Virus record (IMG/VR): IMGVR_UViG_3300029305_002203
Coordinates: 1 to 64,000 of that record
Reading direction: 5' to 3' (one strand)
DNA: 64,000 nucleotides
Source: a virus
Lineage: Duplodnaviria > Caudoviricetes
The notes beneath the pieces were generated by a model that was not told the origin of the DNA, searched no databases, and saw only the letters and a program-made list of their open reading frames with translations. A program made the position numbers and the translations under genes. Shown piece after piece: positions 1,881-30,498 of this stretch (position 1 is the stretch's first letter; the number at the start of each line of letters is the position of its first letter).

Positions 1881-3245
1881 GTGCCGTATACTTACAAAGA
1901 ACTATGTGATTTGTTAGGTGCTAAATATACAAATGCGACTAATAAAAAGGTTGAATTTCTTGAAGAATTGGAAAGCTATTGTGAGTACGAAAGAGTTGAT
2001 AGTAAACATTTTATAATAACAAATATATATGATAATCCATTACCTACATTATGCAATGGCTATTATTACAAAACAATAATTATTCCAGTTAAGTGTTCAA
2101 AAGAAGATTATGATTACTTAATGCAATGTAGTAAATGGGCAGGAGATTGTTGGAATAAAATTGTAGAAGCAGATCATTCTTTCCATGAACAAAATGACAG
2201 ATGGATGAAAAAATGTGAGCTGCAAAATTTTGTAAAAGGATTAACTCCACTTCATGCTGTTGGTAATCAACACGTATATATTAAGTATGAAACTTCTCGT
2301 GATGCAATGTTTAGATCAATTGAGTCAGAACATAGTGGCAGCAACAAAGTAAGACTTCCATATAAAAAGAAAAAATATTTTGTAGTTGGTTGGAATGTTT
2401 TTTGTTCCCAGATTGATTATAAGAATCATATTTTAAAGCTTGCAAAGAAAGCAGATGAGAATAGAAGACAACAGAAACCTATTGTATGTTATTTTAAGAC
2501 AATGCCAAAGCATGTTGTTGAGATTGAGTTGATATACAGAAATGGTTTATGTTTAGCAATTAAATATAAAGAACCAAAAACAAATGATACCATCCAGTAC
2601 AATAATGTTGCTGCAATAGACCTTGGTGAAATACATAGTATCACTTCTATTGATAATAATGGTAATGCAATTATTATTACTGGAAGAAGGATTAGAAGTA
2701 TTAAAAGATTGCAAAACAAAGAACAAGCAAAACTTCGTAGTAAAAGAGATAAACTTACAAAAGGAAGTAGACAATATAAGAAATACAGTCGAGCCATATA
2801 TAAACTAAAGATAAAATCAGATAGGCAGATTTTGGACTGTGTTCATAAGATAAGCAAATTGTACTTAGATTATTGCATTGAAAATAATATCTCAAAAGTT
2901 TATTACGGAGACTTAGATTCTTGCACAAGAAATACAAAAGAAAGAACCGGTAAATTAGTAGGACAGAAGTTAAATGATTGGTGTTATGGATTGTTGACAC
3001 AGCAGTTGGAAAACAAATTGAGTAGATATGGTATTGAAATGATAAAGATTTCAGAAGCATATAGTTCCCAGACTTGTCCTCATTGTGGTAATAAGTACAA
3101 GCCAACTAATAGAAATTATCAGTGTAAATGTTGTGGATATGTACAACATAGAGATTTAGTTGGAGCGATGAATATTCTTAGCTTCAATGAAAAAGATGTT
3201 CATATTGAAAAGTATAGTAACTTAAAGTATCTACGTATTGCGTAA
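1881..3245 (+). mobile_element. tnpB: Solo TnpB RNA-guided endonuclease (IS200/IS605/IS607 superfamily, no TnpA)
   Basis: RuvC-I AAIDLGE, RuvC-II region YYGDL...ISEAYSSQTCPHCG, Zn finger CPHC/CKCC, RuvC-III HRDLVGAMNI; true start may be ATA at 1854 after AGGAGGTGG. Confidence 0.9.
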
Positions 3246-27563: not shown

Positions 27564-29858
27564 ATGAATAAACCCAAATTAACAATGATTGAATTTTTTT
27601 CTGGTATTGGAGCACAGAAGAGAGGTATTGATAACACAGAACTTTATGATTTAGATGTAGTGGCTACTAGCGATGTTGATAAAGAAGTAATGGTTGAATA
27701 TGCAGCTATTCATCATGGATTAACAAATGAGATGGTTGAGAACTATGAAAATTATCCAAGTCGTGAAGAAATGGTAGAAGAATTAAAAACCCGTAATATT
27801 GGTATGGATTTTGACAAGGGTAAAATGTTTGATTGGAACAAGCTTATAAAGAAGAAAACAAAAGATTTAGAGAAGTATTGGCTTGCTATGACATTACAGA
27901 ATAATCTTGGAGATATTAGCAAAATTGAACAAGCACCTACTGCTGATTGTTGGTTTTATTCGAGTCCTTGTCAGTGTTTTTCAGTAGCTGGTAAGCAAGA
28001 TGGTATTGATGCTACTTGTAATGCATGTGGTCAGAAATATAATCCGATGTTATTAGATGCAGACAAGAGATATATTTGTCCCCATTGTGGTTCTGATGAT
28101 GTAAAAGGTACTAGATCAGGATTATTACTTGAAATAGAAAGATTGCTCATCAAGGCTATTGAAACAAATACTGCACCTAAATATCTTTGTTTAGAGAATG
28201 TAAAGAACCTTGTAGGTAAACAGTTTAAAACTGACTTTGATGCTTGGATTAAGAGATTGGAGTATTTAGGGTACAATACATATTGGCAAGTTTTAAATGC
28301 AAAAGAATGTGGAGTTCCACAAAACAGAGAGCGTGTTTTTGCATTCTCAATCCGTAAAGACATCGACACCGACAAATTCACATTTCCACTCCCTTTTGAC
28401 ACCGGTATTCGTTTAAAAGATATTCTTGAAAAAAATGTAGATGAAAAGTATTACATAAACACAGAAAGAGCTTCAAATCTTATTCAGCAGTTAGTAGATA
28501 AAGGCCAGTTAAAAGGTCAGAGAGAATGTTGCGATTCAACTATCAATGACCCTAATGTAAGAGATGTTAGTAATGCAATTATTGCAAGATATGATGCTGG
28601 AATTAGTAATTATAGACAAACAGGATTAGCAGTAGCAGAACCTCAACCTATTCTTGTTAAGAATCAGGGAACAGAATACATAAAAAATCTTGATGAATCG
28701 GTAACACTTAAAGCAAGAGATTGGAAAGGTTGGGATAATTATGGTTCAACTGCTATTGTAGAATCTGAAACTTTAGACTCTTCTAAGAGATTAGGTGGGA
28801 TGTTTGATGATAACACTAAACATCAAGCAGGCTCAGTATGGGATACAAACGGTTTAGCACCTACATTAGATACAATGCAAGGTGGATTGAGACAACCATG
28901 TGTTGTTGACACAGAACCTAAAGAAAGATTCTTCAAACAAGCATTAGAAACATTTAATAATAATGATTGTGAAGAAGGTGATACCATTGATGCTTTCAAT
29001 CAAAGAGTAAACAAGAGTGGTTATAGCCCTACCTTAACAACAAGACCAGAAGGATTTAAAACTGCAATTTTGCCGGTTGTTAAAGAAAATGTATCCGAAA
29101 CTAGTCAAAATAAAAAGTCTACTTGGAAAGACATTAACTCTCATTACAAAATCAGTAGCAAAGGTGTAGTTGTAGATGTTATTAATAAATGCCAAGTAAA
29201 AGAAATAGATGGCAAGGTTGAATTAGAAGTCAAAGGTAAGATGGCTAAATTCCCTATTGATGCTTTAATGAAGAAGTATTTCGCAGAAGAAGTAGATACT
29301 ACAAAGCCTATTTGTGTAGGTAATACAACTCCATCTGGTAAATCACAGTGCAATGCAGTTTATTCAACTGAAGGCGTTTCTCAAACTTTGTGTGCTGGTA
29401 CTCATGGATATGCAACAGGTTCTATATTAGAAGAACAAAAAGAAGTAATAGGTATTAAACAAGCAACTAAGAAGGGATATATTGAGTGCGAACTTCCTGG
29501 GTGTGCAGATTTAAGTTTTCCTTCTTCTACAACAAGAAGAGGAAGAGTACAAGATAATGGTCAAACTTCTCCTACAATTACTGCTACAGAAACAGGAGTG
29601 CATTACATAGAATCTGTTTATCGCATAAGAAAGTTGACCGTTGGTGAGTGTTTCGTGCTTATGGGATTTGAACTATTAGATTGGGATAAATGCGTAGCAG
29701 TGGGTATTTCGAATAGTGCAGGATATAAGGCGGCTGGCAACTCAATTGTCACCAATTGTATCTCCTTGCTCTTTGAACATTTATATAAAGCACAATATGA
29801 TGAATCATATATTTGTACTGATGAAAAAATGCAAAATTTTCAGAAACCAGAGGCATAA
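27564..29858 (+). CDS. multi-TRD (multispecific) DNA cytosine-C5 methyltransferase
   Basis: FFSGIG (I), SPCQ (IV), ENV (VI), QNRERVF (VIII), ~6 tandem TRD-like modules, RKLT..EC..LMGF (IX), AGNSI (X). Confidence 0.9.
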   Translation: MNKPKLTMIEFFSGIGAQKRGIDNTELYDLDVVATSDVDKEVMVEYAAIHHGLTNEMVENYENYPSREEMVEELKTRNIGMDFDKGKMFDWNKLIKKKTKDLEKYWLAMTLQNNLGDISKIEQAPTADCWFYSSPCQCFSVAGKQDGIDATCNACGQKYNPMLLDADKRYICPHCGSDDVKGTRSGLLLEIERLLIKAIETNTAPKYLCLENVKNLVGKQFKTDFDAWIKRLEYLGYNTYWQVLNAKECGVPQNRERVFAFSIRKDIDTDKFTFPLPFDTGIRLKDILEKNVDEKYYINTERASNLIQQLVDKGQLKGQRECCDSTINDPNVRDVSNAIIARYDAGISNYRQTGLAVAEPQPILVKNQGTEYIKNLDESVTLKARDWKGWDNYGSTAIVESETLDSSKRLGGMFDDNTKHQAGSVWDTNGLAPTLDTMQGGLRQPCVVDTEPKERFFKQALETFNNNDCEEGDTIDAFNQRVNKSGYSPTLTTRPEGFKTAILPVVKENVSETSQNKKSTWKDINSHYKISSKGVVVDVINKCQVKEIDGKVELEVKGKMAKFPIDALMKKYFAEEVDTTKPICVGNTTPSGKSQCNAVYSTEGVSQTLCAGTHGYATGSILEEQKEVIGIKQATKKGYIECELPGCADLSFPSSTTRRGRVQDNGQTSPTITATETGVHYIESVYRIRKLTVGECFVLMGFELLDWDKCVAVGISNSAGYKAAGNSIVTNCISLLFEHLYKAQYDESYICTDEKMQNFQKPEA

Positions 29859-29868
29859 CTGTCTCTGG
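29834..29868 (+). other. predicted -1 programmed ribosomal frameshift signal
   Basis: In-frame A AAT TTT heptamer (29834-29840), 6-nt spacer, 9-bp stem CCAGAGGCA/TGTCTCTGG. Confidence 0.7.
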
Positions 29869-30040
29869 CGAAGAAACATTTAAACCACAGCTACTTGCTG
29901 GTTTCGGTGAAATAAACTTTGGCAAACAATATAGACAAGGTAATAGAGTTTATTCGAGCGACCATATAGCCATGGCACTCAATGCTCAACCTGTCGGAAA
30001 TATGGGAGGTTATTCATATTTATATGTCGTTAGAGAATAA
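29840..30040 (+). CDS. -1-frame extension of MTase encoding extra TRD-like module
   Basis: Open -1 frame SETRGITVSGEETFKPQLLAGFGEINFGKQYRQGNRVYSSDHIAMALNAQPVGNMGGYSYLYVVRE*; no own start/SD at its 5' end. Confidence 0.65.
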   Translation, partial: SETRGITVSGEETFKPQLLAGFGEINFGKQYRQGNRVYSSDHIAMALNAQPVGNMGGYSYLYVVRE

Positions 30041-30302
30041 TAAAGAAGTATATATATTAGATGACCTATATGCCAATAGAGATCCAAGACTATACACTGA
30101 ATGCCCCACATTGCGTAGTGAACGATATGGCTTAAAGGTTATAGAAGAATTCCCGGTTTGTTGTGCTATGCGTGGAAGATATAATGAAGACGGAAAGATA
30201 GAGCAGCAATTAGAAGTTAATTCGGCAGATTATTGTAATGCAATTACAACAGTTTTTAAAGATTGTATGATATTGGAGAAATTGGAGAATACAGATGAGT
30301 GA
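30024..30302 (+). CDS. stand-alone protein with two MTase TRD-like modules
   Basis: GGGAGG SD; CPTLRSERYGLKVIE and CCAMRGR...CNAITTVFKDCMILE resemble the PTL/xTL TRD repeats of the MTase. Confidence 0.65.
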   Translation: MSLENNKEVYILDDLYANRDPRLYTECPTLRSERYGLKVIEEFPVCCAMRGRYNEDGKIEQQLEVNSADYCNAITTVFKDCMILEKLENTDE

Positions 30303-30498
30303 TTTAGATTTTACTTATAGTCCATACGTGAATAGTAAATATACGCAATTCTATGAAAAGTATGGATATCTACCTAAATATTTTAATCCTTATAACTGTA
30401 CAGAGTTGGATGGTTATGCTCCAACTCTTACTTCTCAAGGAGATAGTATTACAAAATCAGGAACAGTGTTGATCATAGAAAAAATTGTCGAAAATTAA
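30295..30498 (+). CDS. stand-alone TRD-like module
   Basis: FNPYNCTELDGYAPTLTSQGDSITKSGTVLIIE, cf. AFNQRVNKSGYSPTLTT in the MTase. Confidence 0.65.
   Translation: MSDLDFTYSPYVNSKYTQFYEKYGYLPKYFNPYNCTELDGYAPTLTSQGDSITKSGTVLIIEKIVEN

Follow-up and report, generated by a model that had tools for sequence, protein, structure and literature searches.

A likely programmed -1 frameshift, predicted to give a multispecific C5 methyltransferase of a phage a second, longer isoform with an extra TRD

Introduction

Does a phage DNA methyltransferase gene that ends at an ordinary stop codon also encode, in the -1 frame beyond that stop, a further specificity module (TRD) that ribosomes could reach by slipping back one base? 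This question is raised by a locus in a 64,000-nucleotide stretch of a Caudoviricetes genome (positions 1 to 64,000 of IMG/VR record IMGVR_UViG_3300029305_002203), hereafter referred to as the window. Programmed -1 frameshifting is known in few cellular or phage gene families. A literature search for programmed frameshifting in DNA methyltransferase genes found no publication, the matches being unrelated (an erm leader, a yeast tRNA methyltransferase, and mutational phase variation). Based on the comparisons reported here, the 3' end of this multispecific C5 methyltransferase gene likely undergoes a programmed -1 ribosomal frameshift that would produce a long isoform with an extra TRD.

Results

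The methyltransferase gene occupies positions 27564-29858 (plus strand, as for all features described here) and encodes, according to the list of open reading frames, its translation, and a Pfam match (PF00145, E = 1e-45), a C5 DNA cytosine methyltransferase of 764 aa. Motifs I (FFSGIGAQ, aa 11-18), IV (PCQ, aa 133-140), VI (ENV, aa 210-216), VIII (QNRER, aa 252-259), IX (RKLT, aa 686-692), and X (GNSIV, aa 723-729) are found in the standard C5 order. In translation, the variable region between motifs VIII and IX extends over ~400 aa and contains many repeated TRD-like modules, and the whole protein is similar to M.SPRI, M.rho11sI, and M.H2I. The 764-aa enzyme is a C5 DNA cytosine methyltransferase, probably of the multispecific phage type. 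A near-identity nucleotide search of the phage collection with the window locus returned no match.

The last 0-frame codons of the gene read CAA AAT TTT CAG AAA CCA GAG GCA TAA and include the slippery heptamer A_AAT_TTT (29834-29840) in the X_XXY_YYZ register of the 0 frame (codons xxA AAT TTT, residues N758 and F759). It is followed by a 6-nt spacer, CAGAAA (29841-29846), and by a putative stimulatory hairpin (29847-29868) made of a 9-bp stem (29847-29855 with 29860-29868) and a TAAC loop (29856-29859), inside which lies the 0-frame stop codon TAA (29856-29858). The original prediction had described this same arrangement of in-frame heptamer, spacer, stem, and loop-borne stop, and each element was found exactly where it had been placed. 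Folding of the window hairpin gave an MFE of -13.9 kcal/mol (z = -3.45), and none of 200 shuffled sequences was as stable. When all 40 occurrences of AAATTTT on both strands of the window were inspected, a hairpin of at least 7 bp located 5-7 nt downstream was found only for the one at 29834-29840. The heptamer, A_AA.U_UU.U, falls within the H_HH.U_UU.Y class, for which efficient frameshifting was measured in E. coli (PMC4066793). Contigs from four sequencing runs span the heptamer and the hairpin, covering 29817-29862 in all four and 29796-29946 in three, and no indels were found at the frameshift site in the contigs of these runs. A look-up of RNA runs listed none containing the locus. Other readings of the same nucleotides were also considered. 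The A_AAA tetramer at 29825-29828 is a possible but weak alternative shift site that is not kept in the related contig L003. Transcriptional slippage was rejected, since it requires longer homopolymer runs than A3 and T4, and a role of the hairpin as a terminator was rejected because no T-run follows it.

The -1 frame is open from 29825, directly after TGA TGA, and its translation past the shift point (29840-30040) comprises 66 codons followed by TAA (30038-30040). The original prediction of about 66 codons with no start at the 5' end was borne out, and the peptide it had quoted is encoded there: no ATG, GTG, or TTG is present in the window -1 frame before 29972, a position that is itself already within the conserved module. 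A conserved TRD-type core (TFKPQLL...GGYSYLYV) lies at 29876-30028; its identity to the counterparts in L002-L004, L099, and L100 is 92-98%. The predicted trans-frame product would link methyltransferase residues 1-759 to 66 additional aa, for a total of 825 aa, with ...MQNF joined to SETR... at the junction. Comparison of the -1 frame with its closest relatives gave dN values of 0.018-0.036 and dS values of 0.72-1.19, and mean pN/pS was 0.22 in this frame, compared with 1.34 and 1.69 when the two remaining frames were read. The -1 ORF, far from being degenerate in relatives, is under strong purifying selection (dN/dS of about 0.02-0.03).

Relatives of the locus were found in more than 100 gut-phage and prophage contigs, with 46 distinct junctions, although many contigs share common ancestry, such that these counts exceed the number of independent observations. 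The heptamer A_AAT_TTT occupies the same register in 46/46 distinct overlapping junctions despite differing flanking codons and amino acids. In 42 of the 46 junction classes, no ATG, GTG, or TTG occurs in the -1 frame from its opening to the conserved module; the four classes with a start codon are L004, where an ATG lies just 5' of the heptamer, L126, L165, and L177. The frame relation was surveyed by searching with the -1 peptide alone and retaining loci with motifs IX-X just upstream (n = 131), and the module was found in the -1 frame at 118 of these loci. A signal-only search used the heptamer and hairpin as a pattern with no protein query and retrieved 77 viral contigs. The upstream 0-frame ORF carried motif X near its end in 74 of them, the register was correct in 70, and the -1 ORFs encoded many different TRD types.

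The hairpin is conserved in position and pairing. It starts exactly 6 nt from the heptamer in all junction classes that were folded, including those with unrelated stems. In aligned sequences compared by eye, three stem pairs differ on both sides between the window and L003. Among the 21 distinct sequences of an 11-bp hairpin class, 99.1% of cells were paired versus 41-52% when partners were slid, compensatory double changes were observed at three pairs, and the covariation score was reached by 0/500 shuffles. Conservation of the heptamer and stem in relatives, which the original prediction had put forward as a check, is therefore seen for the heptamer at every distinct junction and for a covarying hairpin in every class folded. 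Taken together, the conserved junctions, the covarying hairpin, the purifying selection, and the scarcity of start codons support the canonical -1 frameshift signal that had been predicted, and we judge the locus to be a genuine, conserved case of -1 programmed frameshifting, in which an established mechanism occurs in an unfamiliar type of gene. They also make it very likely that the frameshift product is made.

The predicted protein also exists as a single ORF, as at least three lineages (L098/L190, L189, and L195) carry the extension fused in frame. In L098/L190 (Eubacterium plexicaudatum ASF492), one extra C in the spacer produces the fusion. Regarding the identity of the extension, homologues of the module form the last TRD before motif IX in the ordinary methyltransferases L096/L188, L129, L181, L183, L193, and L194, where they belong to one ORF and lie 10-22 nt ahead of the motif IX match. 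Over a stretch of 36 aa, the -1 module also shares 47% identity with a variable-region segment of M.rho11sI (aa 270-305) and M.H2I (E = 1e-4); in M.rho11sI, this segment may be the GAGCTC/GDGCHC TRD. Its place directly ahead of motif IX in other enzymes marks the -1 module as a bona fide TRD type and, with the natural in-frame fusions, supports the earlier suggestion of an additional specificity module. The suggestion that the -1 peptide resembles the internal modules of the enzyme held for the generic TRD pattern but not for sequence similarity, since BLASTP found none that was significant (E = 31). An origin of the extension by internal duplication was dropped, as neither the -1 peptide nor the next ORF had a significant BLASTP match to the methyltransferase. 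Neither the -1 peptide nor the two small ORFs downstream belonged to any Pfam family. The position of the module departs from known TRD placement, since it follows motif X in the window, outside the VIII-IX region, and follows a C-terminal motif I in circularly permuted relatives; a TRD after motif X is not known from any C5 methyltransferase characterised so far. An AlphaFold2 model of the natural in-frame fusion L098, built from a 36-row alignment, was confident for the catalytic core, but pLDDT stayed below 50 in the internal TRD region (314-419) and throughout the extension (491-599), so that it does not inform on docking.

Two more small ORFs follow the extension. The first (30024-30302) lies in the methyltransferase frame, encodes two TRD-like modules (..CPTLRSER.. 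and ..AMRGRYNEDGK..NAITTV..), and has an ATG start overlapping the last codons of the -1 ORF; its dN/dS is 0.02-0.07 in its own frame only. The other (30295-30498) lies in the third frame, has an ATG overlapping the preceding stop, and encodes 67 aa with a TRD-like module (..APTLTSQG..). Both have fused counterparts: modules homologous to the first continue the -1 extension in frame in L004, and a homologue of the second is fused in frame within the -1 extension of L102. L003, L099, and L100 resemble the window in carrying further TRD modules in small ORFs that are separate, begin with an ATG, and are also under selection. Such separate ORFs suggest that TRD modules may act as free-standing proteins, which makes the need for fusion to the enzyme less compelling. 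The -1 ORF could accordingly be read as one more free-standing small TRD protein, produced by non-canonical initiation or by reinitiation at the methyltransferase stop, with an incidental heptamer. The ATG-bearing downstream ORFs of the window, the L047 class, in which the same module has its own ATG, and the ATG of L004 all fit this explanation. We nevertheless consider it unlikely, given that 42/46 junction classes offer no start codon ahead of the conserved module and that natural in-frame fusions exist. It also leaves unexplained the invariant in-register heptamer, its fixed 6-nt spacing to a covarying hairpin, and the near-exclusive -1 relation (118/131 loci).

The junction also shows signs of mobility. 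The same unit of heptamer, hairpin, and TRD is joined to two enzyme architectures, ordinary and circularly permuted; such units are stacked in L089, L175, and L178, with two frameshift units in series in some phages; and L110 appears to be a chimera whose breakpoint coincides with the heptamer, since it resembles L045 on the 5' side and L024 on the 3' side. Together with the very different TRD types found behind the same junction, these observations could mean that the heptamer and hairpin serve mainly as a recombination junction for swapping TRDs, in spirit like the attC hairpin of integrons, and that the frame offset is a by-product. This second explanation is quite improbable, as it accounts neither for the almost constant -1 frame of the downstream ORF nor for its absent start codons and purifying selection, and recombination is better taken as an added property of the unit than as a substitute for frameshifting. 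Very improbable is a decaying remnant or mutational on/off switch, in which a frameshift mutation or phase-variable indel severed the C-terminal modules of a formerly longer gene and the signal is fortuitous. In its favour, in-frame versions exist (L098/L190, L189, and L195), and the L047/L048/L052 group contains almost identical contigs that do not share one frame. Selection and conservation nevertheless largely refute this reading: dN/dS remains this low in the -1 frame across deep divergence with saturated dS, the same frame offset recurs in more than 100 contigs of diverse studies, slipped-strand phase variation would need a longer run than A3T4, the heptamer and hairpin are kept with covariation, and the contigs of four runs contain no indel variants.

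Discussion

Programmed frameshifting remains the explanation that we favour. A majority of ribosomes would decode AAT TTT, open the hairpin, and terminate at the TAA of the loop, yielding the 764-aa enzyme. A minority, paused by the hairpin 6 nt ahead, would slip one base back on A_AAT_TTT, with the Asn tRNA exchanging AAU for AAA and the Phe tRNA pairing with UUU both before and after the slip, and would then read 66 more codons to give an 825-aa isoform with an extra C-terminal TRD after motif X. The ratio between the two isoforms would be set by the efficiency of frameshifting. The catalytic core of the long isoform could thereby methylate one additional target, which would widen protection against host restriction enzymes. 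We infer the slippage itself, its efficiency, and the activity of a TRD outside the VIII-IX variable region from sequence features and homology. That the frameshift product adds a methylation specificity is reasonably probable.

A broader and more tentative idea, which we consider possible but rather doubtful, is that heptamer, hairpin, and TRD form a portable, stackable recoding cassette, of which gut-Clostridia phages append at least one to methyltransferases of two architectures. Serial -1 frameshifts would then create a graded series of isoforms with more target specificities at each step, and the conserved junction of ~40 nt would double as a homology patch for cassette swapping. TRDs would be active outside the VIII-IX region and, in some phages, even as free-standing proteins acting in trans. 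If correct, this would overturn the notion that a C5 methyltransferase TRD has to be inserted into the polypeptide that carries out catalysis.

With a conserved case in a DNA methyltransferase, the list of genes using -1 frameshifting would come to include an enzyme-specificity switch. Such a case would represent a translational widening of anti-restriction methylation that does not burden every enzyme molecule with an extra domain. The stacked extensions would then be rare examples of serial frameshifts within a single gene of a bacterial virus. Such an arrangement would also raise the structural question of how a TRD attached after motif X reaches DNA. Genes of this type are likely annotated as truncated enzymes with orphan ORFs, or as pseudogenes. 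Recognition of the signal would mend many gut-virome annotations and would be relevant to the prediction of phage methylomes and host range.

The locus shares several features with the G-T-type tail assembly chaperone genes of lambda and with OrfAB of the IS3 family, namely a heptamer and downstream stimulator near the 3' end of the gene, a short product accompanied by a C-terminally extended fusion at a fixed ratio (predicted in our case), and a signal that is kept across many phages despite sequence divergence. Unlike in these systems, the gene encodes a DNA-modifying enzyme, and what frameshifting would add is a module for substrate specificity. The heptamer also differs (A_AAT_TTT versus G_GGA_AAG or A_AAA_AAG), and the frameshift units can be stacked, as in L089, L175, and L178.

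With the Bacillus phage enzymes M.SPRI, M.phi3TI, M.rho11sI, and M.H2I, the window methyltransferase shares one catalytic core serving tandem TRDs between motifs VIII and IX. According to work from the Trautner laboratory, such multispecific enzymes reportedly protect their phages against several restriction systems. All TRDs of the Bacillus phage enzymes are in frame and within the VIII-IX region, whereas the window enzyme would gain an extra TRD after motif X through the predicted frameshift; its variable region (about 400 aa) is also much longer.

Two further systems invite comparison. In M.EcoHK31I (alpha/beta), part of the DNA-recognition function is likewise encoded in an alternative frame of the same locus (PMC2836561). 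The beta chain of that enzyme, which carries motif IX, is separately initiated inside the alpha gene and is essential; in the window, by contrast, the alternative frame is found past the stop, lacks a start codon, and adds a TRD, probably covalently through frameshifting. Phase-variable Type I hsdS and Type III mod genes resemble the window methyltransferase in that one locus varies methylation specificity through the choice of TRD. However, these genes are switched between cells at the DNA level, by recombination or changes in repeat length, whereas the window methyltransferase would be controlled translationally, with both forms present in each cell.

A canonical frameshift signal at the 3′ end of a phage methyltransferase gene

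The window encodes a 764-aa C5 DNA cytosine methyltransferase (27564-29858, + strand; Pfam PF00145, E = 1e-45) with motifs I, IV, VI, VIII, IX, and X in standard order and a variable region of ~400 aa between motifs VIII and IX, packed with patterns resembling target-recognition domains (TRDs). The enzyme is a member of the multispecific phage C5 methyltransferases and, as a whole, resembles those of Bacillus phages SPR, rho11s, H2, and phi3T. Between motifs IV and VI (residues ~150-182), it also carries a CxxC...CxxC zinc-ribbon-like insertion, which matched Pfam Zn_ribbon_8 and HypA below cut-offs and is kept in relatives (e.g., L024, L036, and L098; L numbers designate related gut-phage, prophage, and metagenome contigs).

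The original prediction placed a −1 frameshift at the end of this gene, and the elements that it described were all recovered. Because the last 0-frame codons read CAA AAT TTT CAG AAA CCA GAG GCA TAA, the slippery heptamer A_AAT_TTT (29834-29840, + strand) lies in the X_XXY_YYZ register. A 9-bp hairpin starts after a spacer of six bases (29847-29855 / 29860-29868, + strand; −13.9 kcal/mol, z = −3.45 upon folding), with the enzyme stop codon within its TAAC loop. The −1 frame is shut by TGA TGA until 29824, is open thereafter to the TAA at 30038-30040, and has no start of its own at the 5′ end, with no ATG, GTG, or TTG ahead of 29972. Of the 40 copies of AAATTTT on the two strands of the window, only that at 29834-29840 precedes such a hairpin. 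No indels were seen at the heptamer and hairpin in the contigs covering the site, which came from four sequencing runs. Judged at the sequence level, the signal has every feature of a canonical −1 frameshift site. An in-register A_AAA tetramer found directly after the −1 frame opens (29825-29828) might offer a second, weak site for shifting; L003 does not conserve it.

The heptamer and hairpin are conserved across relatives

The module was found in the −1 frame behind the enzyme C-terminus in all of L002-L004, whose enzymes are 66-75% identical. Viral, metagenome, and genome collections searched with the −1 peptide alone yielded ~180 loci, 131 of which have motif IX-X within 700 nt upstream of the module; 118 of these 131 carry the module in the −1 frame. 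Collapsing the loci gave 55 distinct junctions, 46 with overlapping ORFs in the −1 arrangement. Conservation of heptamer and stem in homologous phage methyltransferases, proposed as a check of the original prediction, held: A_AAT_TTT was present in the 0-frame register inside the ORF overlap of all 46, and a hairpin was found in all junction classes folded. The heptamer is constant while the preceding codon and following residues vary, and a standard start codon precedes the module in the −1 frame at only 4 of the 46 junctions.

In all classes folded, the structure starts exactly 6 nt past the heptamer, including those with sequence-unrelated stems or large loops (L050, L066, and L165). In 21 distinct sequences with the commonest stem (11 bp), 99.1% of cells were paired versus 41-52% with partners slid, three pairs were altered on both sides, and the covariation score was reached by none of 500 shuffles. 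Aligned by eye with L003, the 9-bp stem of the window shows three double changes. In L100, the hairpin is retained despite the 0-frame stop being shifted to immediately behind the heptamer, and the hairpin is therefore not there on account of the stop. A role as a terminator was rejected since no T-run follows the hairpin.

We also searched independently of the module peptide, with the signal alone (AAATTTT-N6-CCACAAG-N8-16-CTTGTGG). This pattern hit 77 viral contigs, of which 74 have motif X within the last 120 residues of the upstream 0-frame ORF and 70 the right register. Their −1 ORFs contain many TRD types, not just that of the window. Fifty-three distinct extension peptides comprise one to four modules each. 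Overall, the cassette (heptamer, hairpin, and TRD ORF) is broadly conserved, and a genuine −1 recoding function is very probable.

The extension is a TRD-type module under coding selection

Over a 48-codon core of the −1 ORF, the window differs from L003 with dN 0.018 and dS 0.72, from L099 with dN 0.018 and dS 0.91, and from L004 with dN 0.036 and dS 1.19. Mean pN/pS among 12 sequences was 0.22 in the module frame, compared with 1.34 and 1.69 in the two alternative frames. We infer that the −1 ORF is translated.

The extension had been likened to the internal modules of the enzyme; no significant similarity to those of the window enzyme was detected, and the resemblance stands for other enzymes. 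Ordinary multispecific enzymes, including that of a Clostridium magnum DSM 2767 prophage (L188) and those of L096, L129, L181, L183, L193, and L194, carry this module in a single ORF immediately ahead of motif IX, where the last TRD canonically sits. The module also matches M.rho11sI residues 270-305 and the equivalent part of M.H2I. The extension is thus a TRD-type module located after motif X.

Natural in-frame fusions were also found. A single additional C in the spacer brings the extension in frame in L098 and L190 (Eubacterium plexicaudatum ASF492), where one continuous ORF reads ...MINF-INPTSGLDSVCG...-module, the predicted product of the frameshift elsewhere. The extension is likewise fused in frame in L189, where the heptamer is lost, and in L195, which keeps the heptamer and a six-base-pair stem remnant. 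The fused polypeptide is therefore a viable form. The TRD parts in the predicted structure of a natural fusion were uninformative.

In the window, L003, L099, and L100, the −1 ORF stops after one module. Small downstream ORFs in other frames encode additional TRD-like modules, and the ATG of each overlaps the stop before it. Those of the window (30024-30302 and 30295-30498) consist only of TRD-like modules. Strong purifying selection acts on the first (dN/dS 0.02-0.07), whose ATG has its nearest GGAGG 14 nt upstream. The modules of the first are joined in frame into one long −1 extension in L004, as is the module of the second in L102. Both ORFs may encode free-standing, possibly trans-acting, TRD proteins.

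Serial cassettes and apparently permuted enzymes

Two cassettes in series were observed in L089 (2986 and 3303), L175 (2989 and 3192), and L178 (2792 and 2968). The first −1 ORF ends there with a new A_AAT_TTT and hairpin (...NFQKPPMS* or ...NFTKPQMD*), and the second signal leads to another TRD-like ORF, an arrangement that implies three nested predicted isoforms.

The cassette accompanies two enzyme architectures, the ordinary motif order of the window and a circularly permuted one. In L065 (1382-2995), L036, L089, L175, L083, and L047, motif I is missing at the N-terminus, which starts at Pfam profile position 22, and a motif-I stretch (..LKLSSFFSGIGAFE..) lies at the extreme C-terminus, past motif X and immediately ahead of the heptamer. 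Residues 2-21 of the ordinary L096 enzyme align with the C-terminus of L065, and residues 20-82 with the L065 N-terminus. All six enzymes look like circularly permuted C5 methyltransferases, and we know of no prior description of this motif-I-last permutation.

The L110 junction (2980-3051) combines a 5′ flank like that of the permuted group (L045 and L138) with a spacer and hairpin identical to those of the ordinary-order group (L024). It looks chimeric exactly at the heptamer, suggesting recombination at the cassette, which is probably also a recombination joint. The near-identical contigs L047, L048, L052, and L056 (~2860-3000 in each) disagree on the frame of a TRD-like stretch that separates the methyltransferase stop from the module ORF. 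This difference appears to come from a G-run indel (..MMGG / GGG..), which may reflect a sequencing error or a homopolymer that varies. In this group, the module comes with an ATG of its own.

Mechanism and comparison with known systems

The most likely reading is a tandem slip on A_AA.U_UU.U stimulated by the hairpin, which would yield an 825-aa isoform beside the 764-aa enzyme. AAAUUUU occurs in the literature on RNA-virus frameshifting. The site is a member of the H_HH.U_UU.Y class, for which −1 frameshifting in E. coli was high when a stimulator was present (PMC4066793). That the appended TRD adds methylation specificity is a reading we moderately favor. Genomes labelled Lacrimispora, Angelakisella, and other Clostridia contain cassette-bearing relatives within prophage regions, and the window sequence is present in animal faecal metagenomes. 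No RNA run was found to contain the locus.

Our literature search found no report of frameshifting in a DNA methyltransferase gene or of a TRD after motif X, nor were serial frameshift cassettes known from either the frameshifting or the methyltransferase literature. The cassette would bring an established mechanism to a gene class new for it, and its domain sits in an unusual place. Its signal follows the same logic as those of the phage tail-chaperone G/GT and IS3 OrfAB. M.EcoHK31I offers the nearest precedent for second-frame use, its alpha gene also encoding the beta chain in a different frame; in contrast to the predicted frameshift product of the window, that second product is separately initiated (PMC2836561).
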